Source of the DNA: an uncultured Candidatus Altimarinota bacterium
Lineage (GTDB): Bacteria > Patescibacteriota > Gracilibacteria > BD1-5 > UBA6164
DNA length: 64,000 nt
Direction of reading: 5' to 3'
Assembly: GCA_963979005.1 (NCBI GenBank)
Contig: CAXBVF010000001.1
Coordinates: 177 to 64,176, forward strand
The position numbers were made by a program, and so were the translations under genes. Shown here piece after piece: positions 2,004 to 60,282 of this stretch (positions are counted from its first letter, which is position 1; each line of letters opens with the position of its first letter). Below the pieces are notes generated by a model, which was not told the origin of the DNA, made no database searches, and saw only the letters and a program-made list of their open reading frames with translations.

Positions 2004-2855
2004 ATGAAACAAATTAACTTATTTTTGATTTCTCTAGTTTTTTTTAGTTTTCTAATATTTTTTTTAGGAAACTATCTTTTTTGATTGAGTCAAAATGAAT
2101 TAAATGAGCATATAGAAGAAAAATATATTGAACCAAGTATAATAATAGATGAGGAATATTTAATAGATGATAATGATTTATCAGAGGAACAAAAGGATAA
2201 AATAAGGATAGCTTTAAAATCTGCTTATAGAATTAATTTTTATTATTTTCCAGAAAATTTTGCTAGTGATGTGTTAAGTTATGTAAATACATTGAAGATT
2301 TTTTTAAATAGTAAATACATAAGTAATAAAATAGATAACTTAAGTGTGGAATTGTATAGAGATAGAGAATCAGTTAGATGAAAAATGAAAGATTGAAAAC
2401 TTCAATTATTTTGAGTAAAAGAAATGTGATTATCCGAATATAGTGCCGTATCTATTCATGAATTTGCTCATTTTGTAGATCTATATTTTTTAGAAAAAAA
2501 AGTATTTACGGATACAAGTTATTATTTTTATAATATTTCATGGGAATCTATAAAGGTATTAAAGCCTGGTTTAGAGCAAAAAGATTTTGTTTCAGGTTAT
2601 GCTATGACTAATAAATATGAGGACTTTGCTGAGTCATTTACATATTATATACTTCATAATGATGATTTCTTAGAAAAATCAAAACAATCTGCACTATTAA
2701 GAGCTAAATATGATTTTTTTTCAAAGTATTTATTTAGAGATGAATGATTTATAAAAAGTGATTTTTCTGTTGATAATGAACTATTAACATATTACCGGGA
2801 TATTACTAAAATAGACTTTTCTTTGGAAAACTTTTTGGAGTTTTTAAAAAAGTAG
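2004..2855 (+). CDS. Membrane-anchored putative zinc metallopeptidase (HExxH)
   Basis: 283 aa with TGA=Gly. It has an N-terminal transmembrane segment, the motif SIHEFAHFVD (HEFAH), and a downstream EDFAESF that could supply the third ligand Glu. Confidence 0.55.
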
Positions 2856-3129
2856 GTATAATATATGTACCAGTAAGAGATAACTTTTTAATTCAAGCTC
2901 AATAACGAGGGGAAAATAAAAGAATTAAAAAAAGTGTTTTTTATAAAAATATAATCAATTCAAACATTATTTATTAAATAGATATTAAGCTAATTTCACT
3001 ATTAGTTAGTTCTATATTACTGTTTATTTTCAAAAAAATAGTATAATAAATGTGCTTCCTTTCTCTAAACATGAAGAAAAAGAAAGATTTTTGATTGTAT
3101 AATTTTAATTTTTAAATCATAAAAATTTA

Positions 3130-5079
3130 ATGAAAGATTTTTTAGATGAACTAGACAAAGAACTAGGGACTGATGTAAATAATTTACAAGCTCCAAAAGA
3201 GGATAAAAGAAAAGAGAATGTAGTTGAAAAAAGAAAAATAACAGTTGTAAAAAAACAAGATATCAAAAAACCAACCAAAGATAACTCTCAAAAAAGACAA
3301 TGATATAATAAAAATTCTCATAATAATGAGGTGAGAGGAAAATTTGCTTCAAAATTTCCAGAAACTAAGTTTTATTTACCATCATTAAGAGAAAAATATA
3401 CTAGGTTTATGCCTGTTGGTTGAAATAACGAAACTGGTTCAAAAAATATGTGAATGATACAATACTGAGATGATATAGTATTGATTGATTGTTGAATACA
3501 ATTTGCAGATAGTAAGTTACCATGAGTAAGTTATTTAGTACCAGATGTATCATTTTTAACAAAATACAAAGATAAGATTAAATGATTAGTATTAACTCAC
3601 TGACATTTAGACCATATAGGTACATTAAAACATGTATTACCGGCACTTGGTATGCCAACTCTATACTGAACTAAATTAACTCTATGATTAGCAAAAAAAT
3701 GACTAGAAGAAGCTTGATTAATAGCTGATACTAGATTTGTAGAAGTAGATGCTGGAAGTGATAAAAAAATAGATATTTGACCTTTTAAATTCGAATTTTT
3801 TAGAGTAAATCACTCAATTCCAGATTGTGCATGATTATATATAGAATCTCCAGGTGGAGCTAAATTTATGCATACTTGAGATTTTAAAATTGATCATACT
3901 CCTGCTATTGATGAACCTGCAGATTTAGATAGGATAGAAAATATGTGAAAAAGAGGTATTACTCTACTTTTCTCTGATTCTACATGAGCTCCTAGAAAAG
4001 GATTTTCTAAATCAGAAAAAGATGTGTGAGAAGCTCTTGATGATATAGTAAAAAATCATACAAAAGGTAGACTTATAATTGCTGCATTTTCTTCATGGAT
4101 TTCTAGAGTACAACAACTTGTTGATAGTTGTGAAAAATATGATAAAACAATATTTTTGAGCGGTAGAAGTATGATAGAGAATGTTAACATAGCAAAAGAA
4201 CTATGATACCTAAAAATAAAACAAGGAGTTGTTAAAAAAATGACTCCAAAAAATACTCAATGAGTATTACCACACAAACAAGTTATTATTACTACATGAA
4301 GTCAATGAGAACAGTTTTCTGCATTAGTTAGAATGGCTGAAGGGAAACATAATTCTGTTGAAATTGTACATGGGGATACTGTTATTTTTTCTTCAAGTGT
4401 TGTTCCATGAAATGAAAGATCAGTTGTTTGAATTATAAACAAACTTATAAAACTTTGAGCAAATGTACTTACTAAAGATGATGGAGAATTCCATACTTGA
4501 GGACATGCTTTTCAAGAAGAACAAAAAATAATGCTTCAATTATCAAATCCTAAATATTTTATGCCTGTATATGGTGATTTATATTTTAGAACAATACATA
4601 AAAATACAGCTGTATCTACATGATTTAAATCTGATAATGTACTACTTTTAGATAACTGAAATATAGTCGACTTTGCACCAAATGGTACTGTATTTAAGTC
4701 AAAAATTAAGGCTCCTATTCAAGAAATAGTTGTTGATGGACGTGGTATGTGAATTTTAAATTCTCATGTAATGCAAGCAAGAGAAAAAATGATGGATTCA
4801 TGAGTTTTGGTTGTTTCATATAGAGTAGATAAAAAAACAAAAGCTATCATGTGACATATTAGACTTGAAACTAGAGGTTTGGTGTATTTAGACGAAGTTA
4901 GATTTATTCATAGAATGATTATTAAAAAAGCCCGTGATGTCTATGAAAATACAGTAAAAGATGTTCCAGATATGGAAGAAAAAGACTTATTAAAAATTGT
5001 AAGAACAGATTTAGAAAAATTCTTACTTCATAAATTAGATAGGGAACCAATGATTATACCAATGCTTACAGAAGTATAG
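3130..5079 (+). CDS. rnj: Ribonuclease J
   Basis: 649 aa with TGA=Gly. It contains the metallo-beta-lactamase motif LTHGHLDHIG, then a beta-CASP region and a C-terminal domain (FHTGGHAFQEE, MPVYGD). The frame matches the track fragment 4879-5079. Confidence 0.9.
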
Positions 5080-5104
5080 TATTATAATAAAATATTTGAA
5101 CATA

Positions 5105-5146
5105 AAAAAGAATAGGAATTAATTAATTTTAAGAACTATTCTTTTT
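5105..5146 (+). terminator. Hairpin plus T-run after rnj
   Basis: aaaaagaatag (5105-5115) pairs with ctattcttttt (5136-5146). The loop is long. Confidence 0.45.
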
Positions 5147-5159
5147 ATTATATTAACTC

Positions 5160-5187
5160 TTGACAAATACTTTATTTAATTTATAAT
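5160..5187 (+). promoter_or_regulatory. Near-consensus sigma70-type promoter for the 5231 ORF
   Basis: TTGACA (5160-5165), 16-nt spacer, TATAAT (5182-5187). AGGAG at 5217-5221 lies 9 nt before the ATG at 5231. Confidence 0.5.
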
Positions 5188-5230
5188 AACATTGTCTTTT
5201 TTTTAAACAATCTTACAGGAGAAAAAAATA

Positions 5231-6325
5231 ATGATTAGACAATTTGCAATAGCGGTAACTCTTCTTGGCTTACTTGTAGGCTGTGGAACAGATACTGAGT
5301 TTGTTGAGAAATCTCCAGAAAGCACTAGCTTCAAAATTAAAGCTATGGCTAATAATGACTTAACTTTTACTGGAGGGGCATTAGAATTTACAACAGAACA
5401 AGGGGTTCGCCATTTCGATGCTGATACTTACCTAAGGCCGCTGACGGAAACTGAAGTGGAGGAGGGAGTTGTAAATGTATATACCCCATATGGCTACGAT
5501 TATGTAGTACTATGGGTATATGGATATGTTAATGATGGGTCATCATGGGGTGGAAGTTATACATTTTCGACTCCTCAGAAAATTCTTTATAATGAAGGTT
5601 CTGAGAATATCATAAATGTATATCCTACATATATTGATACATATGAAACATTAGCAGTAACAGATTCATATCCTGATGGTTGTACCGTCTGGACGCATGA
5701 AGATACCTTGATCAGAGGCAAAGAAAATAATGTGAAGTATTTTGCCGTATGTAATGAAGATAAAAGTGAAACTTTGAAGCGTGGTCTGAATACAGTCAAT
5801 TTGCCTGGCACTCCGTCAGAAGATGGAGAAGTCGCTTTTGATGATGTGTCGGATGAATGTGATGAGGTTGAGCTTTTACTGGGTTGGTGTTCAGATTATG
5901 TCTTTTCCGATATAAATCTATATGATGTAAATGGTCGGAAGATAGAAAAATTATCTAAAACATTTTCTTTGTTAGATAAAGGCTCGCTGATTATTGAAGA
6001 TGATTTTTTATTTTCAGATGCTGAGAGAGTTAATCTCTTGACGCTGTGTATTAATACACCTGACGAAGAAATTGATTCTATCAAGTTTCAAAGCTTAGCC
6101 GTTCCGACTGATTATGATACTGATGTGTATAGGACTGTTAATACTTTTTATGATGATTTATCTGGAAATACTTGCCCTTATCTTGATAGTGGGATATTTA
6201 TTCCAAAAAATAATCAATTAATGGTTTCGTATAGTGTAGTAGGTTCTTCAGCATTTAATAATGTTGAGGCTACAATCGTTGAGGGATTTGGTAATACTAG
6301 CGGTTTTACAATCGTTGCTGAATAA
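5231..6325 (+). CDS. Lipoprotein of unknown function, free of TGA codons and compositionally atypical
   Basis: The 364-aa ORF is intact even under the standard code. The lipobox LLVGC follows a signal peptide. All 27 Gly are GGN. In-frame GCG, CGC, CCG, CTG, ACG and TCG codons are rare in neighbouring genes. A strong SD and a consensus promoter lie upstream. Confidence 0.75.
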   Translation: MIRQFAIAVTLLGLLVGCGTDTEFVEKSPESTSFKIKAMANNDLTFTGGALEFTTEQGVRHFDADTYLRPLTETEVEEGVVNVYTPYGYDYVVLWVYGYVNDGSSWGGSYTFSTPQKILYNEGSENIINVYPTYIDTYETLAVTDSYPDGCTVWTHEDTLIRGKENNVKYFAVCNEDKSETLKRGLNTVNLPGTPSEDGEVAFDDVSDECDEVELLLGWCSDYVFSDINLYDVNGRKIEKLSKTFSLLDKGSLIIEDDFLFSDAERVNLLTLCINTPDEEIDSIKFQSLAVPTDYDTDVYRTVNTFYDDLSGNTCPYLDSGIFIPKNNQLMVSYSVVGSSAFNNVEATIVEGFGNTSGFTIVAE

Positions 6326-8066: not shown

Positions 8067-11000
8067 ATGCAAAAATTTAATATGTCTAAATGAGTTAAAT
8101 TGTTAATAACCACATTATTAATAGTAGTTTGAGTTAATAATGTTAATGCGACTTACATACAAAATCCTGATGGAATTTGATGAAATGAACTAAGATTATG
8201 GTTAGAATCTACTTCGTGAGTTACTGGTAATACAGATTGAGCTAAAATTAGTCTTTGGACTGATAAGTCATGAAATGGTTTTGATGTATCTCAAGACCAA
8301 TTTATTAGTCAACCTACATATAGTGATAATACTACTTCAAATATAAATTTTTTACCAGTTGTTTCTTTTCCTACTAGTATTTTTACATACCTAGATTTTC
8401 ATACAGGTTTTGATGTAAATTGGAACAATGATTATACATTAACTGCTGTTCTTAGAAATAATACATTTTCATGATGAACATTTGTTGAAACAATAACTTA
8501 TGATGAGGCATTAAACTTAACTAAAACTTATTATAATTGAGTTAATCAATCATATGACCCAACAGCAACTTGATCAATAAACATTGGTGATTTTACGTCA
8601 TCATGAACTTTTGCTGTATGATGATATGGTTATGAATTTGACCTAGCTGAAGTACTTGTGTATAATAAGGAATTACCAATAGAGGATATTCAAGTATTAG
8701 AATCATATTTAGCACTTAAATATTGAGTTGCTTTTGAATGAAATGAATCTCTATCTCATGATTATTATGATTCAAATAAAAATATAATTTGAGTTCTACA
8801 TAGTAATACGGGTTTATGAACTACATCTAATTATTATTCATATTGATATTATGATACTAATTGAACTTATAGATACTCTACTCGCTATTTTTCTTTTAAT
8901 ACTACATGAATTGTTAGAGATGACGCTTTATGATTAAATGTAACAAAATCAAAAAATCAAAACTATGGTTACTGACTTGTAACAATAGAGAAAACTAATG
9001 CTTTAAATAATATGGAGCATTTACTTATATCTGATACTTGGTCATCAGTGGATTGGGATTTATTTGACGCACCTGTTTGATATAGTCTAGTCTCTAGAAG
9101 ATGGTCTACTCAATGAACAAGTGATAACATAAAGCTTACTTTTGATGTGGATAATTTAGCTTTAAATATTCCAGCTCCAGTTGATGGTTCTAGTAATTAT
9201 TATTTTATATATGATGCAGATTTAGATTGATTACTAGCTGATGAGTCACCACTTCCAATGTCTAATGACTGATGAGGAAATTATAGTATATCATGATTAA
9301 GTTTATCAGATAGACAAGATTTTACTATTGCTAGTTTATGAGAGTATAATTTTGCACCTAGAGTTATAAAAATAGATGATAGTAAATATTCTGATAGAAT
9401 AGAACTTAATACTCTTACATGATCTGTTATTTGAAATTTATCTGTAGTAGATGAAAATTCTTTGGATACACATACTTATGCTTTGGTGGCTTGAACGGGT
9501 TCTGAAGATAATGCCTTTTTCTCTATTAGTTGAAATAGCTTAAGTGTAAATTTTTCTGCAGATTATGCTAATCCATTGGATGCTAACCTAAATAATGTAT
9601 ATAATATATTAGTTGAAGTTACTGATAATTGAGGTTTAACTTATCAAGATACTTTCTATATATATGTAAATCAAGGATATGCTCCTACTGACCTAACTAT
9701 TGATGGTTTTGATGCTTTACATATAGATGAAAATAATTCATTATATTCTAATATTTGAACTCTTATTGCTACAGACCCTGATACTTCAGATACTCATTAT
9801 TTCAACTTAGTAACTTGAACATGAGATGAAGATAATAATTTATTTTATGTAGATTATTGACCATGGTTAGAAACACAATTTGTAGCTGACTATGAAGTTC
9901 CTCAAGATGCTAACGGTGATAATACTTATAATATACGTGTTGAAACAACTGATGCAGAATGAAATAAATTTTCAAAAGCACTTACTATTGTTGTAGATAA
10001 TGTTAACGAAACTAATGTTGCCCCTACAAATATATTAATTAATGGTTGAAGTTCTCCAACTATTGATGAGAATGAAGTAAATTGATTTGTATTTTGAAAC
10101 TTATCAACTACAGATGCAAATACCTGAGATACACATAGTTATACATTAACATGATGAATAGGTTCTGATGATAATTGAGCAGTTACAATTTCTTGAACAT
10201 CAGTATCACTAAATACTAGTCATGATTATGAAAATCCTGCAGATGCTGGTGCTGATAATATGTATGCTTTTAGAGTAAGTACTACAGATGCATTATGATT
10301 GACTTTTGAAAAAGCTTTTATTCTTAGTGTAAATGATGTTGCTGAGAGTAGTTCTCCTTATAATTTACAATTAAATTGATGAATTAGTGTTACAATTGAT
10401 GAAAATACTCCATCTTGAACTAATATTTGAGCATTTACGAGTGATGATTTAAATGTTTGAGATGTACATACTTATTCTATAGTTGCTTGAACGTGAGATG
10501 AAGATAATGGATTATTCATTTTATCTTGAAATAATCTTCAACTTGCTTTTACTCCTGATTTTGAAATTGAGGCTGATGCCAATGTTGATAATACTTATAA
10601 TATTAGAGTTAGAGCAACTGATAGTGATTCACTAACTACAGAAGCGGCATTTACTGTTGTTATTAATGATGTTAATGAGGCTATTAATAATGCTCCAACT
10701 GATATAAAAATCAATAATTTAGATACAATAAGTATTGATGAGAATATAACTAGTTGAACTAATATTTGAACTGTTTCAGTAATTGATCCTGATATTTGAA
10801 ACACACATACTTATACTTTAGTTAATTGAATTTGAGATGAAGATAATTCTAATTTTACTTTAGTAGCTACTACTCTTTCTTTAGCAATAACTCCTGATTT
10901 TGAAAATCCTGTAGATGCTAATAATAATAATGTTCATAGAATTAGACTTAGAGTTACTGATAATTTTTGATTAAGTTTTGAAAAAACTTTCAATATAACT

Positions 11001-12482
11001 GTTAATGATATATTTGAAAATACTGCTCCAAGTGATTTAAAAATAGCTGGTTTAGATGCAATAGATATAGCTGAAAATACTTCTACATGAGCTAATGTAT
11101 GAGCACTTTCGAATACTGATATAGATAATTCAGATACTCATACTTATTCCTTAGCAGTTTGAGCTTGAGATACTGATAATGGTCTTTTTAGAACTCATCT
11201 TGGTTCATTATTTATGGATTTTAAACCAGATTTTGAAAATCCAGTTGATACAGGTACAAACAACCAATATAATATTAGATTAAAAGTTACTGATAATAGT
11301 TGAGCAATTTTTGAAAAAGCATTTATTATATCTATTACTGATGTTTTTGAAAATACAGTGCCTACAGATACTAAAATAAATTCATTAAATGCAATTTCTG
11401 TAAATGAAAACATTACTTCATGATCTAATATATGAACATTATCAGTAGTTGATGGTGATATTTGAGACACATATACTTATTCATTATTAGCTTGAACTTG
11501 AGATGAAGATAATACACGTTTTACTATATCTTGAAATAGTCTTAGACTTGCATTTACACCAAACTTTGAATCTCCTATAGATTCTAATGCTAATAATATA
11601 TATAATATAAGAATTAGAGTTACTGATAGTGGATGACTTACATTTGATAAAGCATTTACAGTTACTGTATTAGATGTAAATGAAACAGTTGTTACTAGTA
11701 GTTGAGGTGGATGATCATCATGATGAGGTGGATGAGGTTGAGCAAAAGTATGTAGACAAGTTGAATTAGTTTGTAGAACAGCTCGTGCTACTTCTACTAG
11801 ATATAGAGTATATAGAGTAGAGTGAGCTTCTTGTTTAGCTGATTCTCTTTGAGATACTTGTGATCCTAAAACTTTTTGAACTGCAGATGCAGTTAAAGTT
11901 TCAAAAATAGCATTATATGTTTCTAAAAGTGAAAAAATTAATGAAATTGCAGTTAAGGTTGATGATATGATTAAAAAAGCTAAAAAACAAGCTGACGATG
12001 ATATTATTATTATGAGAAATGATGTAGTAAAAATAATCGAAGAGTATTTAGAAATATTAAAAACTAAAAATAAAGCAAAAATTGCTAGTGCTAAAGAAAA
12101 TCTAATAACAGAATTTAAAAAGTTTTTAGTTGAAGTTAAAAAGAAAAAAATTGTAATTGTAAAAGCTCCTAAACCTGTTGAAAAAACGGAAGACGAAGGA
12201 GTTGTAAAAGAAGAATGAGAGGAAGATGAAAGCTGAAAATATGTATCTCCTAATGATAGAATTAATGGTGTATGAGATAAACTAGATACACTTATTAAAG
12301 CAAAGAAGAAAGCTAATACTTGAACTATATTAGAAATGAGAAACTGACTGATGAAAGATTTAGAAGCTTATATGGTTTTATTACAAAGTAAAATCTCTGC
12401 TAGAACTAAAGCTATTCAGATAAAAATTTCTAAAAGAAATCTTATAAAAAAGATAAGAGCTTTTATGGCAGAAATTAAATAA
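8067..12482 (+). CDS. Giant surface protein: signal peptide, LamG-like lectin domain, 7 cadherin-like repeats, poly-Gly linker, coiled-coil tail
   Basis: 1471 aa with TGA=Gly. The N-terminal LRLWLESTSGVTGNTDGAKISLWTDKSGNGFDVSQ ... AEVLVYNKELPIEDIQVLESYLALKYGV is a typical LamG/ConA-like module. The repeats carry cadherin hallmarks (IDEN..., D.D..DTH.Y.L, VNDVNE..AP). Confidence 0.8.
9354..11687 (+). repeat. Seven tandem in-frame cadherin-like repeats (period 327-339 nt)
   Basis: Repeat units begin near 9354, 9681, 10020, 10353, 10692, 11025 and 11358. Each starts at (A/S)P(T/S)D/N and ends at V.DVNE/F. Confidence 0.8.
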
Positions 12483-20669: not shown

Positions 20670-23600
20670 ATGAAAAATTTATTAAAAATAGTTGTATTTA
20701 TATTTATTACATTATCTATGGCTAGTAGTGCTAATGCTATTAATGTAGGTATAACTAGTCATGAAACTACTAGTTGTCCATGAGATAATAATGATGTAAC
20801 TTATTATATTTCTTGAAATTCTTATGAAAGATTTTTAGGTGATATGTTTTGGACGTCTGATGATAGATATATTTCTACGAACTCTGATGTTACTATTTGG
20901 TATTCAGATCCAAATTTATTATCAGGTTGTAATAGTTCATCTGATTGGTCAAGAATAAGTTCACTTTCACCTGGTTCTAATACTGAAGTATTGGCTTTAT
21001 GAGCTAATTGTACATTTAATAAACCTACAGATAAAAATAATAGAACTTTACAATTTGTATATAATATAAAATATTATGATATCATATCTGGTTGAGGTGC
21101 TTCAATTTGAGATTGGGACCTTGCCTATTTTTTAAATACTACGGAAGCAAATGATAATACACCACATTTTTGATCATATACAAATGTTGGTTTTGATAAT
21201 GAATTAACTCATGACAATGAATGTTTTAATGTAGAACTTAGGTATTGTTGAGATGAAATTAGAGAAGCTACGGAATGAGAACAATGTGATGACTGAAATA
21301 ATATAAATTGAGATTGATGTAGTGCAACTTGTCAAACGGAACCAGTATGTAATAGCCTTACAGTTACTCCTGCTAGTTGATTACCAGGATTTAATACAGT
21401 TCTTAGCTGTAATTGAAATACTTCAACATATAGAATTGAAGTTGCAAATAATAATTGAACTATCATCGATTCTATTAATTCAAATTTTTGGAATTTATCA
21501 TTTTCAGATGTATGAACTTATACAGCTACTTGTTATGTTGCTTGAATAACTAGCCCAGCATGTACTAAAACTATTACAGTTACTCCTCCGGCATGTACTG
21601 CATGAACAATTACATGAGTTCAAACTTCAGCAATAGATGGATCTATTCCATGACTATGTCCAATAAATACTACAGCGGCAAATTTTGTAGAAGTAGTAAA
21701 TTGAACACTTTCAACTTATACATGGACATGTGATTGACTAGTATGATGAAATTGTAGTGCAAGTTATGATACTAATCCTGGTAACTGTACTGCTTGAACA
21801 ATTACATGAGTACAGAATGATGCACTTGATGGTACTGAAACATGATATTGTTCTTCAGGAACTTTTTGAGATTTTTTAGCAACAGTAAATTGAATTACAA
21901 CAAACTATACATGGTCTTGTGATTGAGAAACATGATGAACATGTAATGCAAGTTATTCTAATAATAATGGAGGTAATTGTATAGCTTGAACTACAAGTTG
22001 AGAGCAAAATTCTCCTATAAATTCAACAAATGTAGGATTATGTCCAGTATGACAAACTTCAGCAGATTTTTTATCTACACTAAATGGAACTATAACTAGT
22101 TATTCTTGGTCATGTGATTGAGAAGTATGATGAACATGTTGAGCTTATTATGATAGTTCTATAAATCATGTATGTGAAGCTTGAACGATAACTTGATTAC
22201 AAACTTCTCGTGTTTATCAGACTAGTACAGGACTATGTCCAGTGTGACAAACTGCTTGAAATTTTGTAACAAGTGTATCATGAAATAGATCTAGTTATAC
22301 ATGGGGATGTAATTGATTATCATGATGAAATTGTAGTGCAAGTTATGTAAGTGGATGATGAACTAGTGCATGTATATCTTGAGGAGTTTCATGAACAGTT
22401 TCTAGTCGTATAGATGTAACTACACCAAATTTGTGTCCTACATGAGAAATTGCGAGATGATTTCAAGCTACATTAGTAGGAAATACAATAAATTATTTAT
22501 GGACATGTAATTGAAGAAATTGAGGAAGTTGTCATGCTGATTATACAAGTGGATGAGGATGAGGAGGTTGAACATTTTGTTGAGATGGTTGATTACAAAG
22601 GCCTAATGATGATTCTATTTTAGAAGAATGTGATTTCTGATCTGGTACTTGGCCACTATGGTGTACTAGTTCTTGTCAAATTACAAATACTACAATGCCA
22701 AATTCTGGTCTATGAGAAATAACAATTCCATGAGGATGATCTTTTGATTTTTGACCAATTGATAATATTCTTATTTGAGTTTGAATGAATCCTTTTATAA
22801 CTCATGATTTAATACCATTTGTTACAAATAATTCAAGTTATGATTTTTATCTTTCAAAATTGTGTGTAAAATGAATTTGAACTTCTGTATCTTGAGCTGA
22901 GGATTGTAGGTCTATAAGTTTTTTACCTGCAACTTGAACTTATACATTTAATTCTTATCCAATTATTAAGTGAATAAATAACTTTATTGATTGAACTTCA
23001 TATTCAGATAATGAAATAAAAACTTATTTAGAAGATTCAAATTGAGATAGTTCATATAATGAAGCAATTTTAGATGTAAGAGTATCTAGACCTTCAATAT
23101 CTACAGTTTGAGGATGAACTACTTATTTACAAGATACTTCGGATATAGCAAATATTAATAATGTAGCTGATAATGATACTGAAAATAAAAACTTTGTTTG
23201 AGTATGAGTAGATACTGGTGATAACTCAAGTTATTCCGATGATATAGATGATAGTGATTTAATAGATGAAGTAGTAGAAGAATGAGAAGATTATTCGTCA
23301 GGTGTTTTAGATGATGTAATAGTAACGGTTAGTAATTTATGACCTGGTACTATGAGTAATTTTGAAAGTTATAACTGAATAGCTAATGTAAATATATTAA
23401 AAGATTATGACTTTGATATCACTTGAGGACAATGAACTAGTTTTCCTTCTGGATCAAGAACATATATAATTGAAAATTGAGATTTAACTATAAGTGAAAA
23501 TATAGAATTTTCTGACAATATAGCATTCATAGTTAAATGATGAAATATTATTATTAAAAATAATGTTACAAGAATTGATTGAACTTATATTACAATCTGA

Positions 23601-23849
23601 GATTCTATTGTTACATGATTATTTAAATGAGAAAGTTCTACTACAACAAATATATTATTAGTTAATGGTTCTCTATATTGAAACATTAATGATTTAATAT
23701 CAAAAAGAACTTATGTTAAACAACAAAGCTCTGGTTTAATAGATGTTTGAACAATAGTAAGTTTTGGGTCTTCTTTATTTAGAAAACCAGCACCATTGAT
23801 AACAACATTTATTAATGAATATCTAACAGCAGATAAAATTGCAAAATAA
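20670..23849 (+). CDS. Large secreted Cys-rich repeat protein
   Basis: 1059 aa with TGA=Gly and a signal peptide. Two CGDG-type Cys-rich modules (RYCGDEIREATEGEQCDDGNNINGDGCSATCQ and FCGDGGLQRPNDDSILEECDFGSG...) flank five 4-Cys repeats. Confidence 0.7.
21594..22570 (+). repeat. Five tandem in-frame 4-Cys repeats (period 192-198 nt)
   Basis: Units start at 21594, 21786, 21978, 22173 and 22371. The consensus is C.AGT..G.Q......(L/Y)C(P/S).G....F.......Y.W.C.G..GG.C.A.Y. Confidence 0.75.
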
Positions 23850-53588: not shown

Positions 53589-54530
53589 TTAGATTATTTT
53601 TTCAGCACATCTAGCTTTAGCGCTTCTACTTCTAGGGTTATCTTTTATTTCTTTATCAGTTGGTATTATTGGTTTTTTTGTTATTAATTTTATACATTTT
53701 GTATGTCCACAACTACATATCATATCTCTACATATACAGTCTTTTGTTTCTAGTTTGAATAGTTGTTTTACTATTCTGTCTTCTAGGGAGTGGAAACTTA
53801 TTACAAATATTTTTCCATTTTTATCTAGTAATTGTATAGCATCTTTTAAACTTGTTTCTAAATTCTCCAGTTCCTTGTTTACTTCTATTCTAATTGCTTG
53901 AAATATTCTAGACTTAGTTTTTGGTCATCATGGAATTATTTCACTTAAATCAGTTGTAGTTTTAAACTTTTCTTTTTTTCTTCTTTCTACTATTCTGGCA
54001 GATATTTTATTTGATCCTGGTTCTTCTCAATATTTTAAAAATATATTTCTAAGTTCTTGAGCAGTGTATCAATTTACTATATCAGCAGCAGTTTTTCATT
54101 TAGTTTTGTCTAACCTCATATCAAGAGGTCATTCTAACATAAAACTAAATCATCTATCAGCTTCATCTAAATGAAGGGAAGATAGTCATAAATCATAGTA
54201 GATTCATGTAATTTTTCATATTTTCTGTTTTTCTAATTCTTCTTTTAGGTTTAAAAAGTTGGAATTAATTAATATTACTTCTACTTTTTTATCCTTGTTT
54301 ACTTTGTCTAATCTAATTTTTGCTAATTCTAAGTTTTTAATATCAGCATCAAATCAGATAAGAGTATCTCATGCATTCATTTTTTCTATAATCTTGCTAG
54401 CATGTCATCACATTCATAGGGTAGTGTCTACAATTATGTTTTTTCTATCACTATTTATATTAATTGAATCAACTAATTCATCTAAAAGTACAGAAATATG
54501 TCTACTTTCAATGCTTTTTGTATCAGTCAT
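53589..54530 (-). CDS. rsmH: 16S rRNA (cytosine1402-N4)-methyltransferase
   Basis: 313 aa. Contains HISVLLDE, DTTLGMGGHASKI (three TGA-Gly), DLGLSSLHLDEADRGFSF, GPLDMRLD, and ISFHSLEDRIVK. Confidence 0.85.
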
Positions 54531-54824
54531 TTCAGTTAATAATGTTAAAAAAATGTTAATTGGTAGATTTTTATACCTATTTATAGCAAAACTATACTCT
54601 ATTTTTATTCTTTTTTTTCCTTTTGTCAAAATAAGTATTAACAATTAACTAGACAAAATGTCTAAAATGATGTGTGCTATATAAAGCTAAAAAAACAGAG
54701 TTTTTAACATTTTATTAACACTTGTCTATATTAAAACAAAGTGTATAATTAGAGTATATATAAAAAACTTGATTTTATTAAAATATTACTAAAATAGTAA
54801 TAGTTTAATTTAAAATTACAAATA

Positions 54825-55565
54825 ATGATAAAAATAGAAAATTTAAAAGTATGAGTCTGAAAAAAGGAAATTCTTAAGTGAATTAGTCTTGAATTTGAAC
54901 TTGGAAAAAATTATTGTTTACTCTGAAAAAATTGAAGCGGTAAGTCAACTCTTTCATCTTTTTTAATGTGACATCCTAAATATGAATATAATAGCTGAAA
55001 AGTAAGTATAGAAGATAATGATTTGCTTGAAATGAACCCAGAAGAGAGAAGTGCCGCTTGATTATTTTTATCATTTCAAAATGTTCCTGAAATCAAATGA
55101 ATAAGATTAAGCGAATATTTGAGAACTATTTATAATATTCATTTAAAAAGTTCTAATCCTGATATAAAGGAATTATCACCATTTATATTTAAAAGGTTCA
55201 TAAACAAATATTTGGAAGAGCTTCACATTGATGAAAAATTTATGGAAAGGGAACTTAATGTTTGATTTTCTGGTTGAGAAAAGAGAAAAATTGAGATTCT
55301 TCAAATGAAGCTTATATGACCAAAATATATTATATTAGACGAAATAGATAGTGGACTTGATTTAGATGCTTTTAGAACAATAGCTGAAATGCTAAAAGAT
55401 CTTAGTAGTAAAGATAATAGTTTAATAATTATTACTCATTATTTCAAAATACTAGAGTATATTAATGTAGACAAAGTGTATGTGATGAAAGATTGAAATA
55501 TTGTAAAAAATGGTAATAAAGAGTTAATTAAAGAAATAAGTGAAAGTGGTTTTACAAATTTATAA
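54825..55565 (+). CDS. sufC: Fe-S cluster assembly ATPase SufC
   Basis: 246 aa. Walker A is LLGKNGSGKST (TGA-Gly at 54924 and 54933), the ABC signature is FSGGEKRK, and Walker B is ILDEIDSGLD. Confidence 0.9.
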
Positions 55566-55570
55566 ATAAT

Positions 55571-55590
55571 AAAAAAGCCCCTTACGGGGC
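55571..55590 (-). terminator. GC-rich hairpin terminator of the antisense ORF
   Basis: On the minus strand: gcccc, loop gtaa, ggggc, followed by tttttt. The ORF's stop codon lies in the loop. Confidence 0.55.
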
Positions 55591-55857
55591 GCTTTCAGAT
55601 GAGTATTTCTTATTTAGTTTTTTCAAACCTTCGAGTATCGCTAATGCTATACAAGCGAAGGCTATGTATCTAAACAAATGATGTACATCCAATGATATTA
55701 TTTCCCATATCTTCCATTCAGGATTGGCCCAAAAGAAATGGACAAATATACCTTTAATTGCATTTTGACCTGTCAATAAGGCCAATAGTGGTATAAATGA
55801 TAAGGATACTATCACGAAATAAGTACCGAAACTTAAATACTTTGCATATTTATTCAC
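55582..55857 (-). CDS. Small multi-pass membrane protein, TGA-free, antisense between sufC and sufB
   Basis: 91 aa with a GTG start. AAGGAG lies 7 nt upstream. There are 2-3 hydrophobic helices. G+C is visibly higher than in the flanking sequence. The ORF is intact under the standard code. Confidence 0.6.
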   Translation of the reverse strand: MNKYAKYLSFGTYFVIVSLSFIPLLALLTGQNAIKGIFVHFFWANPEWKIWEIISLDVHHLFRYIAFACIALAILEGLKKLNKKYSSESAP

Positions 55858-55890
55858 TTTAATTCTCCTTTTAGCAAAATTGCTTATTAA

Positions 55891-55918
55891 ATAATAACTT
55901 AAAATTTATATATGTCAA
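55891..55918 (-). promoter_or_regulatory. Promoter of the antisense ORF, with its -35 box overlapping the sufB start codon
   Basis: On the minus strand: TTGACA (55913-55918), 16 nt, TATTAT (55891-55896). Confidence 0.4.
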
Positions 55919-57318
55919 ATCAAAAACAACAAACTGTAACTGTATCTGATACCTGGAATTTTCAGGATGATAATATAGTTTATACTAACGAAATAATCAA
56001 GTGAATAAATGAAGATGTTGTTAGACAAATCAGTTTGTCTAATAATGAACCAGAATGGCTACTTGAGTCTAGGCTTAAGGCTTTAAAAATATTCAGAGAA
56101 AAAGAAATGCCTAAATGGTGACCGGATTTGTCTAAGTTGAATTTAGATGAGATTTATTATTATGCTAAACCAGAATGAGCGGGTGCTAAAAAATCATGGG
56201 ATGATGTTCCTGAAAATATTAAAAATACATTTGATAGATTAGGTATACCAGAAGCTGAAAAAGAGAGTCTTGCGTGAGTATGAGCACAATATGATAGTGA
56301 AGTTGTCTATCATAGCTTAAAACAAGAATTAGTAGATGCTGGTGTTATATTTGATGATACATCTATAGCTGTGAATAAGTATCCTGAATTATTTAAAAAA
56401 TATTTTACAAAATCTATTCCTCTTAGTGATCATAAGTTTGCTGCACTTCACTACGCTGTTTGGTCAGGTTGAACATTTTTGTATGTCCCAAAAGGTGTAA
56501 AAGTAACAGAACCTCTTCAGTCTTATTTTAGAATGAATAAAAAATCAGGTGGACAGTTTGAACATACAATCATTATTATAGAAGATGATGCTGAAGCTCA
56601 TTATATAGAATGATGTTCTGCTCCTAAATATGATGAAAATTCTTTGCATGCTGGATGAGTAGAAATATTTGTATGAAAAAATGCCAAGATGAGATATTCT
56701 TCAGTTGAAAACTGGAGTCTAGATACATATAATTTGAATACAAAAAGAGCTATAGTAGAAGAAAATGCCTACATGGAATGGGTGTGATGAAATATGTGAT
56801 CAGGAGTCACCATGTTGTACCCATGTAGTGTATTAAAATGAGATAATTCAAAAACAGATATGCTTTGACTAGCTTTTGCAAATGCTAAACAAAATCAAGA
56901 TATAGGTTCAAAAGTAATTCATATTTGAAAGAATACTTCATCAAATATATTGTCTAAATCATTGTCTAAGTGATGATGAATATCGACATATAGATGATTA
57001 ATAGATATAAAGCCTAGTGCTGTTTGAGCTGTGTCTAAAATAGATTGTGATGCATTGTTATTAGACAATAAATCAATATCAGATACGGTTCCAAAAATAA
57101 ACGTTTGAAATAGTGATTCTATAGTTTGACATGAAGCATCAGCTTGAAAAATAAGTGAGGAAGAGTTGTTTTATCTTCAGTCTAGATGAATATCTGAGGA
57201 GGAAGCAACTGGTATGATAGTAAACGGATTCTTATCACCAATAATGAAGGAATTACCACTTGAATATGCTAGTGAAATGAATGTATTAATTGCTATGGAA
57301 TTTGAGGGAGGATTTTAA
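55912..57318 (+). CDS. sufB: Fe-S cluster assembly scaffold SufB
   Basis: 468 aa with SufB/SufD-family beta-helix sequence throughout ([57 protein letters not shown]). Confidence 0.9.
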
Positions 57319-57368
57319 AAAGGCAAAAAGCCAGACAAGCTTTCCTCCTAAGAAGCTTTTACTGTCTG
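57318..57368 (-). terminator. Long interrupted hairpin terminator of the 57385 ORF
   Basis: cagacaagctt (57332-57342) pairs with aagctt..tgtctg (57353-57368). On the minus strand it is followed by gctttttgcctttt. Confidence 0.5.
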
Positions 57369-57384
57369 ACTTTTAAAATTTTGT

Positions 57385-57660
57385 TTACTCACTTTTATTT
57401 TCTACTTTCGTAAAATGGAGAAACTCTCCATCTATGAAAGCAACAGAAATAGTCATTTCTTTTCTTCCTTTAATAGGAACATCATGACCAAGTAATCCTA
57501 TTAAAAGTGAATTCTGTTGTTTTTTACAATCTATGTTACCTTGATTATATCCTTTAAGTCGTGCTTCATTTATAGCCTTATTCCTTGATATTCTGTCTAT
57601 AATAGCAGCTACTATAAATAGTAGTACTATTAAAATATATATGATAGTAAAATCTCTCAC
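57385..57660 (-). CDS. Small single-pass membrane protein, TGA-free, antisense between sufB and sufA
   Basis: The track ORF is 57385-57672. The likely start is GTG at 57660, with GGAGA 5 nt upstream. It has an N-terminal transmembrane helix (FTIIYILIVLLFIVAAII) and a C-terminal soluble part of about 65 aa. Confidence 0.55.
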   Translation of the reverse strand: MRDFTIIYILIVLLFIVAAIIDRISRNKAINEARLKGYNQGNIDCKKQQNSLLIGLLGHDVPIKGRKEMTISVAFIDGEFLHFTKVENKSE

Positions 57661-57689
57661 TTTATTCTCCAAAAATTTATGGTAAATAT

Positions 57690-57717
57690 ATTATAATCAC
57701 ATAAGTATTAATGTCAA
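57690..57717 (-). promoter_or_regulatory. Consensus sigma70-type promoter of the 57385 ORF
   Basis: On the minus strand: TTGACA (57712-57717), 16 nt, TATAAT (57690-57695). Confidence 0.5.
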
Positions 57718-57768
57718 TTTTAGCTATAAAAAAAGCCAAGCACAGGATAGTGCGAGACTCGGTGATAA

Positions 57769-57879
57769 CTAACTAATTAATGAATAGTTAGTTACAATTA
57801 TATAAATTCCCATGCATATACTAAATACTGTAAAACAGCATGATTTGTATAGAAAGTGATTTTTTTTCCCAGAAAACAT
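57769..57879 (-). CDS. Candidate 36-aa hydrophobic peptide
   Basis: MFSGKKNHFLYKSCCFTVFSICMGIYIIVTNYSLIS. GGAG lies 7 nt upstream of the ATG. It is not in the track because it is under 60 aa. Confidence 0.35.
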   Translation of the reverse strand: MFSGKKNHFLYKSCCFTVFSICMGIYIIVTNYSLIS

Positions 57880-57969
57880 TGTGTTTCTCCTTTTGGTAGT
57901 GGAATTATAGTTTATTTTTATTTTTCTCTAATAAAATTTAGAGGTCAATATAATATGTAAAAAAAATAA

Positions 57970-58365
57970 ATGTCAAATATTAAATTAGATAAAAATACTG
58001 TTAGATATTTTGAAGATAAAAATATATCAAAAATTAAGATATTTTTTTATGAATCATGATGTAGCTGAACAAAAGTAGATATTAGTGATGATTTTAAAAT
58101 TGATGATAATTTAGTACAAGTAGAAACAGATTATCTTTTTGATTTATATATAGAAAAAAAAGATCAAGATAAGTTTATGGATTGCAATATCACTAGAACA
58201 GTAAAAGCTGATCATACATGAAAAGAAAAGATACGTTATATATTTTCTAATGAAAAAGTAAAAGATAGATGTGGATGTGGTAGTAGTTTTAGTTTTGATA
58301 AAAAAGAAATTAAAATAGACTTGAGTAAATTAAAGGATATGAAGCTTAATATTAAAACTAAATAA
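57970..58365 (+). CDS. sufA: HesB/IscA-family Fe-S carrier (SufA/ErpA-like)
   Basis: 131 aa. Contains GCSGTK and the C-terminal CGCGSSF motif. Confidence 0.8.
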
Positions 58366-58368
58366 AAA

Positions 58369-59046
58369 ATGAAAATTACAAAAAATTGATTTTATAAACT
58401 ATCTGAATTTACTACAAATGAGATTAACATTGAAGATAACTTAATTGTAGCTATTTTTGATGATTTAAATGAGAATTTAAATATAGAAATCTGAGAAAAT
58501 TCTAGACTAGAATTTTATTCTATTATAGAAAATACTGATGATTTAAATATAAATTTTTTACAGAAAAAAGAATCATCTATTCTTCAAGTTAGATGTTTAT
58601 TATTATCAAAAGATTCTAATAAAATAAAAACTAGGATATATTCTGAATTATGAGCCTCTAAAACAAAATCTGATATTCAAATTATTTCCATTATTTGAAA
58701 TAATTGAGAAGTAGATTTGGATTGAATAATTCAAATAAATGAAAATATTGAGAAGGTAGATTGAAATTTAAATGAAGAAAATTTATTTTTAGGGAATAGT
58801 TGAAAAGTTAATTGAATACCAACACTTTTAGTAAGAAGTGATGATGTAAAAGCATCTCATGCATGTAAAATGGAAAGAATAAGCGATGATAAACTGTTTT
58901 ATTTAAGATCTAGATGAGTAGGTAAGGAAAATGCACTTTCAATGATGATAGAAGCAAAAATAAAGGGGTTATTTTCATGTATTTCTATGCTTGATAATGA
59001 GTTTTATGAAAAATTGCTTGATAATATATTAAAAAAGATAAAATAG
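58369..59046 (+). CDS. sufD: SufD-like Fe-S assembly protein (short)
   Basis: 225 aa with SufB/D-family C-terminal sequence (VKASHACKMERISDDKLFYLRSRGVGKENALSMMIEA). Confidence 0.7.
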
Positions 59047-59082
59047 ATTAATTACTAAATATATTAAAATTAATAAAAAAAA

Positions 59083-60282
59083 ATGGATATTAAAAAAGAC
59101 TTTCCTATATTTCAAAACAATAAAGATTTAATATTTTTTGATTCAACATCATCGACACAAAAACCAAGTTATGTTATAGATGGAATAAAGGATTACCTAG
59201 AAAATAGTTATTCAAATATTCATAGATGAATGTATGATATAGCATGAATTTCTGAAGAATTGTATGATAATTCAAAAAAGAAAGTTGCAGAACTTATATG
59301 AGCGGAATCTTACAAAGAAGTTATATATACATATAATTCTACGTATGCTTCAAATCTATTAGTTTGATCACTTAGATTAACATGAAAATTAAAAGCTGGA
59401 GATAAAGTATTATTAAGTATTGTTGAACATCATGCTAATATAGTTCCATGGCTTATATTAAAAGATGAAATAGGTATAGATATAGATTATGTAGATGTGG
59501 ATGAAAATTTTAATTTAGATTTAGAGGATTTTAACAAAAAATATGATGAGAGTGTAAAAGTAATTTCTTTTACTCATGTTTCTAATATTACTGGACAAGT
59601 TTTTGATTTAGAAAAAATTTGAGAACTTAAAAGGGCAGATACATTATTTATTATTGATGCATCTCAAAGTGTTCCTCATTTCAAAATAGATTTAAAAAAA
59701 TTAAATGCTGATTTCATATTTTTTACATGACATAAAATAATGGCAGATTCAGGTATTTGAGTATTATGGTGAAAAACTGAACTATTAAATGAGTTAAAGC
59801 CAGTATTTTCTGGATGATGATCTATATCAAAAGTAGAAGAAACATGTTTTATAGATGGGAAATTACCTTATAAATTTGAACCTGGTACTCCTAATCTTAC
59901 ATGAGCTGTTAGTTTATTAAAGGCCTTGGAGTATATAGATAGTATTTGATGATTTGAAAAAGTAGAGGAAATAGAAAAGGACTTAGTAGAGTATACATTA
60001 AAAAAAATAAATGATAGAGCTTATATTAAACTTATTTGAAGTAATAGTTCAGAAAAAAGAGTCTGAGTTTTTGCATTTACATTATCAAATATACATTCAG
60101 ATGATATAGCAGATGCTATGGCAGAAGAAAATATATGTATTAGGTCTGGTTTACATTGTGCTCATCCTTTTTTGAACAAATTATGACTAAATCATTCATC
60201 TAGAATGAGTTTGTATATTTATAATACACATGAAGATATTGATAAGTTTTTTGAAGTTTTAGATGATGCTAGCAAATACTAA
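59083..60282 (+). CDS. sufS: Cysteine desulfurase SufS
   Basis: 399 aa. Contains HHANIVPW, SFTHVSNITGQ, FFTGHKIM (PLP lysine region), and RSGLHCAHP (active-site Cys). Confidence 0.9.

Follow-up and report, generated by a model that had tools for sequence, protein, structure and literature searches.

An antisense mini-gene cassette between sufC and sufB of a recoded Gracilibacteria genome: a probable horizontally acquired accessory gene

Between sufC and sufB, two genes of iron-sulfur (Fe-S) cluster assembly, an uncultured Candidatus Altimarinota bacterium that reads TGA as glycine (genetic code 25) carries on the opposite strand a small gene of 91 codons, orf91, which is fitted with a promoter-like sequence and a terminator of its own. 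The stretch of DNA analyzed, referred to as the window, is 64,000 nucleotides (nt) long (GenBank assembly GCA_963979005.1, contig CAXBVF010000001.1, positions 177 to 64,176, forward strand). The reading favored here, with better than even confidence, sees in orf91 a self-contained accessory gene, comparable to a phage moron, that arrived by horizontal transfer at a place where antisense insertions recur. It draws on the anatomy of the cassette, the constraint on its coding sequence, a composition foreign to the genome, differences in the slot from one species to another, and a signature that orf91 shares with a class of similar genes.

Anatomy of the orf91 cassette

The cassette and the two genes that flank it comprise the following features (aa, amino acids; UTR, untranslated region):

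54825-55565, plus strand: sufC, Fe-S cluster assembly ATPase (TIGR01978 equivalog, 278 bits against a cutoff of 212.8)
55571-55590, minus strand: predicted intrinsic terminator, hairpin GCCCC-GTAA-GGGGC at 55577-55590 and T-run at 55571-55576 (motif and folding)
55582-55857, minus strand: orf91, 91 aa, GTG start, TAA stop (from the listing of open reading frames)
55865-55870, minus strand: Shine-Dalgarno sequence AAGGAG, 7 nt 5' of the GTG
55869-55884, minus strand: 5'-UTR element AGCAATTTTGCTAAAA, containing the palindrome AGCAAnnTTGCT (conserved in the related contig L011, see below)
55918-55891, minus strand: putative σ70-type promoter TTGACA-N16-TATTAT (11 of 12 consensus positions, at the level of the motif)
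55912-57318, plus strand: sufB (SUFBD_core, E = 3.8e-82; SufBD_N)

The initial annotation, made from the sequence of the window, had described a self-contained antisense cassette whose promoter overlaps the start of sufB. That description is supported by the cassette's own expression signals, by its foreign composition and by the coding status of the gene. The open reading frame (ORF) lies in the 346-nt sufC-sufB spacer as described, and so does AAGGAG at its distance from the GTG. Read in reverse complement, the -35 hexamer of the promoter-like sequence (55913-55918) gives codons 1-2 of sufB (ATG TCA), within the ATGTCAA start context.

The terminator begins 5 nt from the sufC stop codon, and the TAA stop codon of orf91 sits within the loop of its hairpin. 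This hairpin is the only terminator-like site in 54600-58100. As had also been claimed, its T-run is present solely in the minus orientation; the hairpin is predicted to fold with an energy of -14 kcal/mol in that orientation, where A/U flanks lengthen the stem (z = -3.35), and of -10.5 kcal/mol on the plus strand. The 5'-UTR element AGCAATTTTGCTAAAA occurs once in the window and is identical at 16 of 16 positions in L011 (positions 28-43), although the two coding sequences agree at just 49% of third codon positions. The element could serve as an operator, or as a stem at the 5' end of the transcript. A search for the palindrome AGCAAnnTTGCT elsewhere in the window found it in single copy only, with no sign of an operator common to several cassettes.

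orf91 is a coding gene for an orphan protein

A HMMER search of 1.84 billion representatives yielded one relative outside the cluster of orf91 itself, a 67-aa protein (P0006) that is 56% identical to orf91 over 57 residues. It is carried by L011, a 963-bp ENA contig of 26% G+C. A neighboring ORF on this contig has several in-frame TGA codons at glycine-like positions, so the organism from which it derives probably also uses code 25. Comparison of the two genes gives a ratio of nonsynonymous to synonymous substitution (dN/dS) of 0.19 over 58 aligned codons, with dS near saturation, and identities of 0.68, 0.78 and 0.49 at codon positions 1, 2 and 3. orf91 is a genuine coding gene under purifying selection.

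Long spurious ORFs are common where only two stop codons operate, many of them antisense, and orf91 has no family match. Both facts would suit a spacer that does not code for protein and has a frame open by chance, or a locus for a small RNA. This is extremely unlikely in view of the low dN/dS and the order of identity among codon positions (2>1>3), the proper spacing of Shine-Dalgarno sequence and start, the placement of the stop codon in the terminator loop, a homolog called independently in another genome, and the lack of any Rfam match.

The product of orf91 is a predicted small membrane protein. Its hydropathy profile has two distinct hydrophobic stretches (residues ~10-30 and ~58-78), and an aromatic, amphipathic helix is predicted in the middle of the protein. 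The model that AlphaFold2 produced from two aligned sequences is all-helical, with three helices, and of low confidence (pLDDT, the predicted local distance difference test, 62.8; pTM, the predicted template-modeling score, 0.31), and is thus too weak for a fold search. It is also an orphan: Pfam, PHROG, PADLOC, NCBIfam and PDB sequences contain no match, a clustered-protein search (5.8 billion) returned the cluster of orf91 only, and no relatives were found in GTDB genomes, IMG/VR, JGI metagenome contigs or INPHARED. A product with two or three hydrophobic helices and no recognized family had also been read from the sequence at the outset.

The L011 copy is without the C-terminal helix of orf91. 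Downstream of it is a convergent ORF, not sufC, so that the two members of the orf91 family stand in different contexts. A role as suf accessory protein does not fit these findings: orf91 is on the strand opposite to suf, is confined to one species, and has its L011 homolog away from sufC.

Foreign composition in a genome that reads TGA as glycine

Across 23 long genes of the window, 5.3% of codons are in-frame TGA (a single gene of 1059 codons holds 91), and the codon is found at conserved glycines, for example in the SufC Walker A motif GKNGSGKST. sufC has 13 TGA-encoded glycines, the Walker A ones included, and sufB has 24; TGA accounts for 68% of glycine codons in this genome. TGA is too frequent for tryptophan, and it is placed at conserved glycines; the code is therefore 25, and code 4 (TGA as tryptophan) is rejected. 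The absence of TGA from orf91, pointed out in the initial annotation, is correct, and its meaning is amended accordingly. The four glycine codons of orf91 are all GGT.

The G+C content of orf91 at third codon positions (GC3) is 0.319 (z = 6.1), against 0.129±0.031 and a maximum of 0.222 among 62 native genes. Its per-codon synonymous log-likelihood under the native codon table is -1.19 (z = -7.2), against -0.72±0.065 for native genes. Bulk G+C contrasts modestly (0.33 for orf91, 0.25 for sufC, 0.31 for sufB), and the earlier remark that the ORF is visibly richer in G+C than its flanks is true in that modest sense; the strong signal is in GC3. Nor does the mode of initiation resemble that of the surrounding genes: ~57 native genes of the window, those for ribosomal proteins included, are without a Shine-Dalgarno motif.

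Could orf91 instead be an ordinary native gene that never underwent horizontal transfer, specifying a lineage-specific, highly expressed small membrane protein whose level of expression would account for the lack of TGA and for the Shine-Dalgarno sequence? Genes for ribosomal proteins encode only ~20% of their glycines by TGA, rplT likewise has none, and four TGA-free glycine codons are weak evidence taken by themselves. This is nevertheless very unlikely. The codon usage of orf91 fits a table derived from ribosomal-protein genes (-1.24) worse than the native table, so that high-expression codon bias is rejected as the cause of TGA avoidance. Its GC3 is far beyond the native range; the ribosomal-protein genes lack Shine-Dalgarno sequences; and orf91 is absent from all other species examined. 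The class of similar genes described below extends the argument, since the absence of TGA from its ~131 glycine codons has p = 2e-13 even at a TGA rate of 20%.

The sufC-sufB junction in related genomes

SufB neighborhoods were collected from a graded series of Gracilibacteria species and the sufC-sufB junction was measured in 27 species (all relatives were retrieved through SufB, and their sequences therefore cover suf neighborhoods). The junction is tight in 12 of the 27, with 5-50 nt and nothing between the genes, and these species are interleaved with the others when ordered by SufB identity. Nine species, including that of the window, have an expanded junction of common anatomy, with spacers of 205-1418 nt. 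In all nine, a -35 sequence TTGACA is made by the sufB ATG-TCA-A. A -10-like hexamer (TATTAT, TATATT, TATAAT or TAATAT) follows at exactly 16 nt in seven; L025 and L076 have TATAAA at the 16-nt spacing, and L016 has a second promoter-like sequence further in. A minus-strand hairpin with T-run ends within ~11 nt of the sufC stop codon in 9/9, the stems differing by species, and between these end signals lie one or two Shine-Dalgarno-led, TGA-free minus-strand ORFs. Two further species (L018 and L029) have an antisense Shine-Dalgarno-led gene with a putative promoter of its own and without the full anatomy.

Species with a tight junction also have TTGACA, and no -10 sequence accompanies it. The -35 sequence is thus a by-product of coding for Met-Ser that is exploited where a spacer exists.

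The cargo of the slot varies. All-against-all tblastn comparison identified three homologous pairs only (orf91/L011, L015/L027 and L025/L076), the L015/L027 pair with a dN/dS of 0.15. The slot-mates of orf91 include small hydrophobic peptides (L015, L016, L027), soluble basic proteins, and enzymes. The 26-aa peptides of L015 and L016 are without purifying selection (synonymous and nonsynonymous differences, pS and pN, 0.37 and 0.43), and their homology and coding status are uncertain. Comparison of spacer length and content among related genomes had been proposed in the initial annotation: the expanded spacer recurs, is absent from 12 of 27 species and elsewhere holds non-homologous cargo. Orientation is uniform. 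Counting independent cargo families at the junction, 8/8 are antisense (two-sided p = 0.008).

Plus-strand insertions at the junction are an IS30-like transposase gene (L042, ~2400-3380) and a DUF559-like gene (L024, ~2770-3130), both named by eye. They are TGA-dense and thus native-coded; the junction also accepts ordinary mobile DNA. A separate observation concerns a 1.66-kb contig (L023, JALWLU010000016.1), which has a Gracilibacteria-type SufB (85% identity in the best tblastn segment) and is binned in a metagenome-assembled genome labeled Sulfurovum sp. The contig may have been mis-binned, or its placement may hint that a possible host occurs together with the bacterium.

A class of TGA-free, Shine-Dalgarno-led genes

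Only four well-spaced Shine-Dalgarno-led intergenic ORFs are found in the 64-kb window. These are orf91 and the following:

5231-6325, plus strand: orf364, 364-aa lipoprotein-like product with lipobox LVGC, AGGAG Shine-Dalgarno sequence and hairpin terminator
57385-57660, minus strand: orf95/91, the second antisense mini-gene, 91 aa, GTG start, GGAG Shine-Dalgarno sequence, predicted N-terminal transmembrane helix
57769-57879, minus strand: orf36, the third antisense mini-gene, 36-aa hydrophobic peptide, AAGGAG Shine-Dalgarno sequence

All four are free of TGA, and the association of Shine-Dalgarno presence with TGA absence across the genes of the window has p = 1e-5 (Fisher). Three of the four are antisense inside the suf operon, orf95/91 and orf36 both lying between sufB and sufA. 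The putative promoter of orf36 repeats the arrangement at sufB, in that the sufA start, ATGTCAA, supplies its -35 sequence (57971-57976) in reverse complement. orf95/91 has a perfect TTGACA-16-TATAAT sequence (57717-57690), six glycine codons that exclude TGA, a codon-usage z of -3.6, and no family match. orf364, an orphan that occurs on just one other short contig, likewise has a perfect TTGACA-16-TATAAT sequence, and its 27 glycine codons are all GGN. The ORF at 5231 had been set beside orf91 from the start, and the signature is common to both (the codon-usage z of orf364 is -6.9).

Similar genes (antisense, Shine-Dalgarno-led and TGA-free) are present in other suf spacers of the relatives: L015_77, L025_85, L024_81, L042_144 and an M17 peptidase gene of L019. 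The last of these, at 3835-5265 on the minus strand beside sufB, encodes a 476-aa M17 leucyl aminopeptidase behind an AAGGAGG Shine-Dalgarno sequence; its 34 glycine codons are without TGA, and yet its GC3 is native-like, at 0.12. It is also the only protein with a match when orf91 and 17 other cargo proteins are compared with Pfam, PHROGs, PADLOC, NCBIfam and PDB. The class as a whole has ~131 glycine codons, all GGN, and zero internal TGA, against 2747 TGA and 1229 GGN in native genes of the same loci. In L015 (3556-3966, minus strand), two cargo genes have TGA where the L027 and L016 homologs have TAA, and the next stop codon (TAA or TAG) follows 10-14 codons on.

The nearest published parallel is in phages. 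Of 38 predicted Gracilibacteria phages, 34 are without in-frame TGA; TGA stops are backed up nearby, and integrated prophages are all densely TGA-coded (Liu et al. 2023, mBio, PMC10746230). The TGA-free Gracilibacteria/Absconditabacteria phages of that study resemble the slot genes in the absence of in-frame TGA and in the backing-up of a TGA stop, as in the L015 cargo. They differ in that the genes of the suf slot are single small chromosomal units with no phage genes nearby, and searches of IMG/VR, INPHARED and PHROGs gave no sequence relatives. None of PMC10746230, PMC6851277 and PMC9297842 describes small TGA-free units in the chromosome.

Origin and maintenance of the cassette

The cassette would work as follows. 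Transcription would start from the σ70-type promoter, with the -35 element supplied by the reverse complement of the sufB ATG-TCA-A. A message free of UGA would be translated through a canonical Shine-Dalgarno site that native genes do not use, and the one-directional hairpin would halt transcription just short of sufC. The source would be a gene pool that does not read TGA as an amino acid: standard-code bacteria, or code-11-compatible phages or other elements of Gracilibacteria. Cargo may be swapped by recombination in the flanking suf genes, which are highly conserved (sufC and sufB, 70-92% protein identity) and so make homologous exchange possible. The uniform antisense orientation might be explained by the fact that a terminator in the sense direction would sever sufB from the sufC promoter. 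Any effect on suf, through head-on collision or through an antisense duplex with sufC-sufB read-through RNA, would be a by-product.

Within the population the cassette is fixed. All 13 population contigs, which come from independent samples and match the window at 99.2-99.7% identity, contain orf91; two of its sites vary, one of them giving E52K. Variable sites number 0-7.7 per kb from sufC through sufA (54825-58365), the stretch that holds all three suf cassettes, against 17-34 per kb in rsmH (53589-54644) and in sufD and sufS (58369-60282). Constraint may account for the low variability from sufC through sufA; so may a sweep, or the import of the cassette-bearing segment, in the recent past.

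Several observations weigh against an imported, autonomous gene. Searches of IMG/VR, INPHARED, PHROGs, GTDB genomes and 15 billion proteins returned neither a donor nor a relative on a mobile element for orf91, orf95 or orf364, so that the case for foreign origin is one of composition. Flanking direct repeats or a recombinase were not seen at the cassette boundaries (read by eye), and the IS30-like transposase is present in one relative only (L042). Two members of the class, orf95 (GC3 0.14) and the L019 peptidase (0.12), have native-like composition and yet are TGA-free, which would be expected no less if avoidance of TGA were maintained than if the genes had arrived recently. Expression of orf91 is read from motifs, and promoter-like motifs are not enriched relative to shuffled sequence in this AT-rich DNA (21 found, 24 expected); the TTGACA/TATTAT motif consequently carries weight only together with the cross-species data. 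Finally, since the relatives were found via SufB, it is mainly the 64-kb window that shows the class to be enriched at suf.

A broader proposal, which we regard as possible but doubtful, is that Gracilibacteria chromosomes have a maintained layer of "code-neutral", TGA-free, Shine-Dalgarno-led autonomous genes in fixed antisense suf slots, each with a promoter taken from the start codon of sufB or sufA and a terminator that shields the gene upstream. It is hinted at by the absence of TGA from the L019 M17 peptidase gene and orf95 at native-like GC3, and by the two cargo genes with TGA at the stop positions of their homologs. Selection may keep such a signature because these genes move back and forth between cells with code 25 and partners, hosts or phages that use the standard code. 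Alternatively, it may serve translation that is independent of tRNA-Gly(UCA) and of normal, non-Shine-Dalgarno initiation.

Possible antisense effects on suf and toxin-like alternatives

The initial annotation had suggested that the cassette provides scope for antisense or transcription-interference control of Fe-S assembly. In its dedicated form, orf91 would be a cis-acting regulator that tunes the SufB:SufC ratio, or makes expression of suf and of the mini-gene mutually exclusive; in the strongest version, antisense transcription itself would be the selected function, and the cargo secondary. The geometry is suggestive. The -35 sequence overlaps the sufB start, and a similar arrangement exists at the start of sufA. 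No plus-strand promoter-like site matching at least 9 of 12 positions was found in the spacer (55566-55911) and the terminator is predicted to be effective on the minus strand only, so that transcription of sufB probably traverses the cassette and meets the minus-strand promoter head-on. In nine species the end signals (promoter at sufB, terminator at sufC) are conserved and the cargo is not.

On the other hand, the spacer is lacking in 12 of 27 species, interleaved by SufB identity; cargo ORFs are under purifying selection with strong Shine-Dalgarno sequences, which implies that their proteins matter; TTGACA, as a by-product of coding for Met-Ser, also occurs in species with tight junctions; and the L011 homolog of orf91 is not beside sufC. 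With the slot absent from so many species, its cargo unrelated and the cargo proteins selected, a conserved regulator of suf is not supported. Failure of the ORF to be conserved in close relatives had been named in advance as an outcome that would speak against regulation, and this is what was found. A dedicated regulator is therefore unlikely. Incidental or lineage-specific interference with suf is plausible, being permitted by the geometry of the cassette.

Another possibility is that orf91 encodes a membrane-damaging protein whose mRNA is neutralized by the complementary sufC-sufB read-through RNA, in the manner of type I toxin-antitoxin or cis-antisense pairs; silencing would then depend on expression of an essential operon, making the insertion hard to lose. 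Like such toxin genes, orf91 specifies a small hydrophobic protein, has a strong Shine-Dalgarno sequence and is fully overlapped by a probable transcript of the opposite strand. Hydrophobic peptides of 25-36 aa (L015, L016, L027 and orf36 of the window) are found among other occupants of the slot or its equivalents, and the cargo is orphan and turns over fast. Unlike the usual type I toxins (<60 aa), the product of orf91 has 91 aa and two or three helices, and it belongs to no known family (Hok, Ldr, Fst, TxpA, Ibs), with no toxin-family match in Pfam or PADLOC. Other cargo of the slot is soluble and basic, or enzymatic, and among the peptides those of 26 aa lack a sign of purifying selection. 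A dedicated gene or promoter for an antisense small RNA was not found (no plus-strand site matching 9 or more of 12 positions in 55566-55911), the sole candidate antisense RNA being the sufC-sufB read-through. A toxin-antitoxin-like pair is quite improbable on this evidence.

Relation to known mobile and accessory elements

A horizontally acquired accessory gene in an antisense slot, which is the interpretation preferred here for orf91, is most readily compared with the "morons" of phages. These are reportedly (Hendrix, Juhala and colleagues, in 2000) promoter-ORF-terminator units lying between genes that are adjacent in related lambdoid phages. orf91 is similarly a single ORF between a σ70-type promoter sequence and a predicted factor-independent terminator. 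It interrupts a pair of genes that stand side by side in relatives (sufC and sufB, 5-50 nt apart in the 12 species with tight junctions), has nucleotide and codon composition unlike that of its neighbors, and occupies a place where cargo is variable and mostly without assigned function. In contrast with morons, it resides in a core chromosomal suf operon rather than in a prophage, is oriented against the flanking genes, and borrows its -35 sequence from the start codon of a neighbor. Also unlike morons, the suf slot has end signals that are conserved across species while the cargo is swapped, and the deviation of orf91 extends to signatures of genetic code (no TGA) and of initiation (Shine-Dalgarno).

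Hotspots of horizontal transfer between conserved core genes are a general concept, and the slot conforms to it as one core-gene interval that holds different accessory genes in different species and is empty in others. It departs from it in being tiny (0.2-1.4 kb, one or two genes) and inside an essential operon, and in the uniform orientation of its cargo, with expression signals fixed at both ends. Integron gene cassettes, which typically lack a promoter, end in an attC recombination site and accompany an intI integrase with attI, were considered and rejected: the 3' element is a plain terminator (5-bp GC stem, GNRA tetraloop and T-run), the cassette has a promoter sequence of its own, and the window has no integrase.

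The neighborhood of the cassette consists of rsmH, sufCBADS, VKOR, sufU and Rrf2. Phage genes are absent from it, with no PHROG or viral matches, and no integrase is present in the synteny of the window; Rfam and tRNA scans of the 64 kb gave zero matches. The window has an overall G+C content of 26%. Relatives of its SufB are all Candidatus Gracilibacteria, and contigs near-identical to it derive from Saanich Inlet metagenomes. Elsewhere it encodes large, very glycine-rich (TGA-rich), secreted-looking proteins (for example at 20670-23849 and 8067-12482), and an example of the spurious antisense ORFs that a code with two stop codons engenders is at 3531-4850.

Significance for recoded Gracilibacteria

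An altered genetic code is often seen as a firewall that keeps genes from being exchanged. The small genes described here in a recoded bacterium are set apart from the rest by codon usage, by the absence of TGA and by their ribosome-binding sites, and many related species have others of the kind in the same place. If confirmed, this signature would be a simple marker for genes that cross, or are neutral to, the code boundary in Gracilibacteria and Absconditabacteria. For antisense control of Fe-S assembly the comparative outcome is mostly negative. What the comparison brings out instead is the manner in which an essential operon tolerates insertions: in antisense orientation only, guarded by a terminator, and with a promoter borrowed from a start codon. 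The orphan membrane proteins and basic proteins of the class are likely to serve accessory functions of these episymbiotic cells. The point of interest thus goes beyond orf91 itself, and is the existence, in a recoded genome, of a fixed antisense slot with swappable cargo that is Shine-Dalgarno-led and free of TGA.

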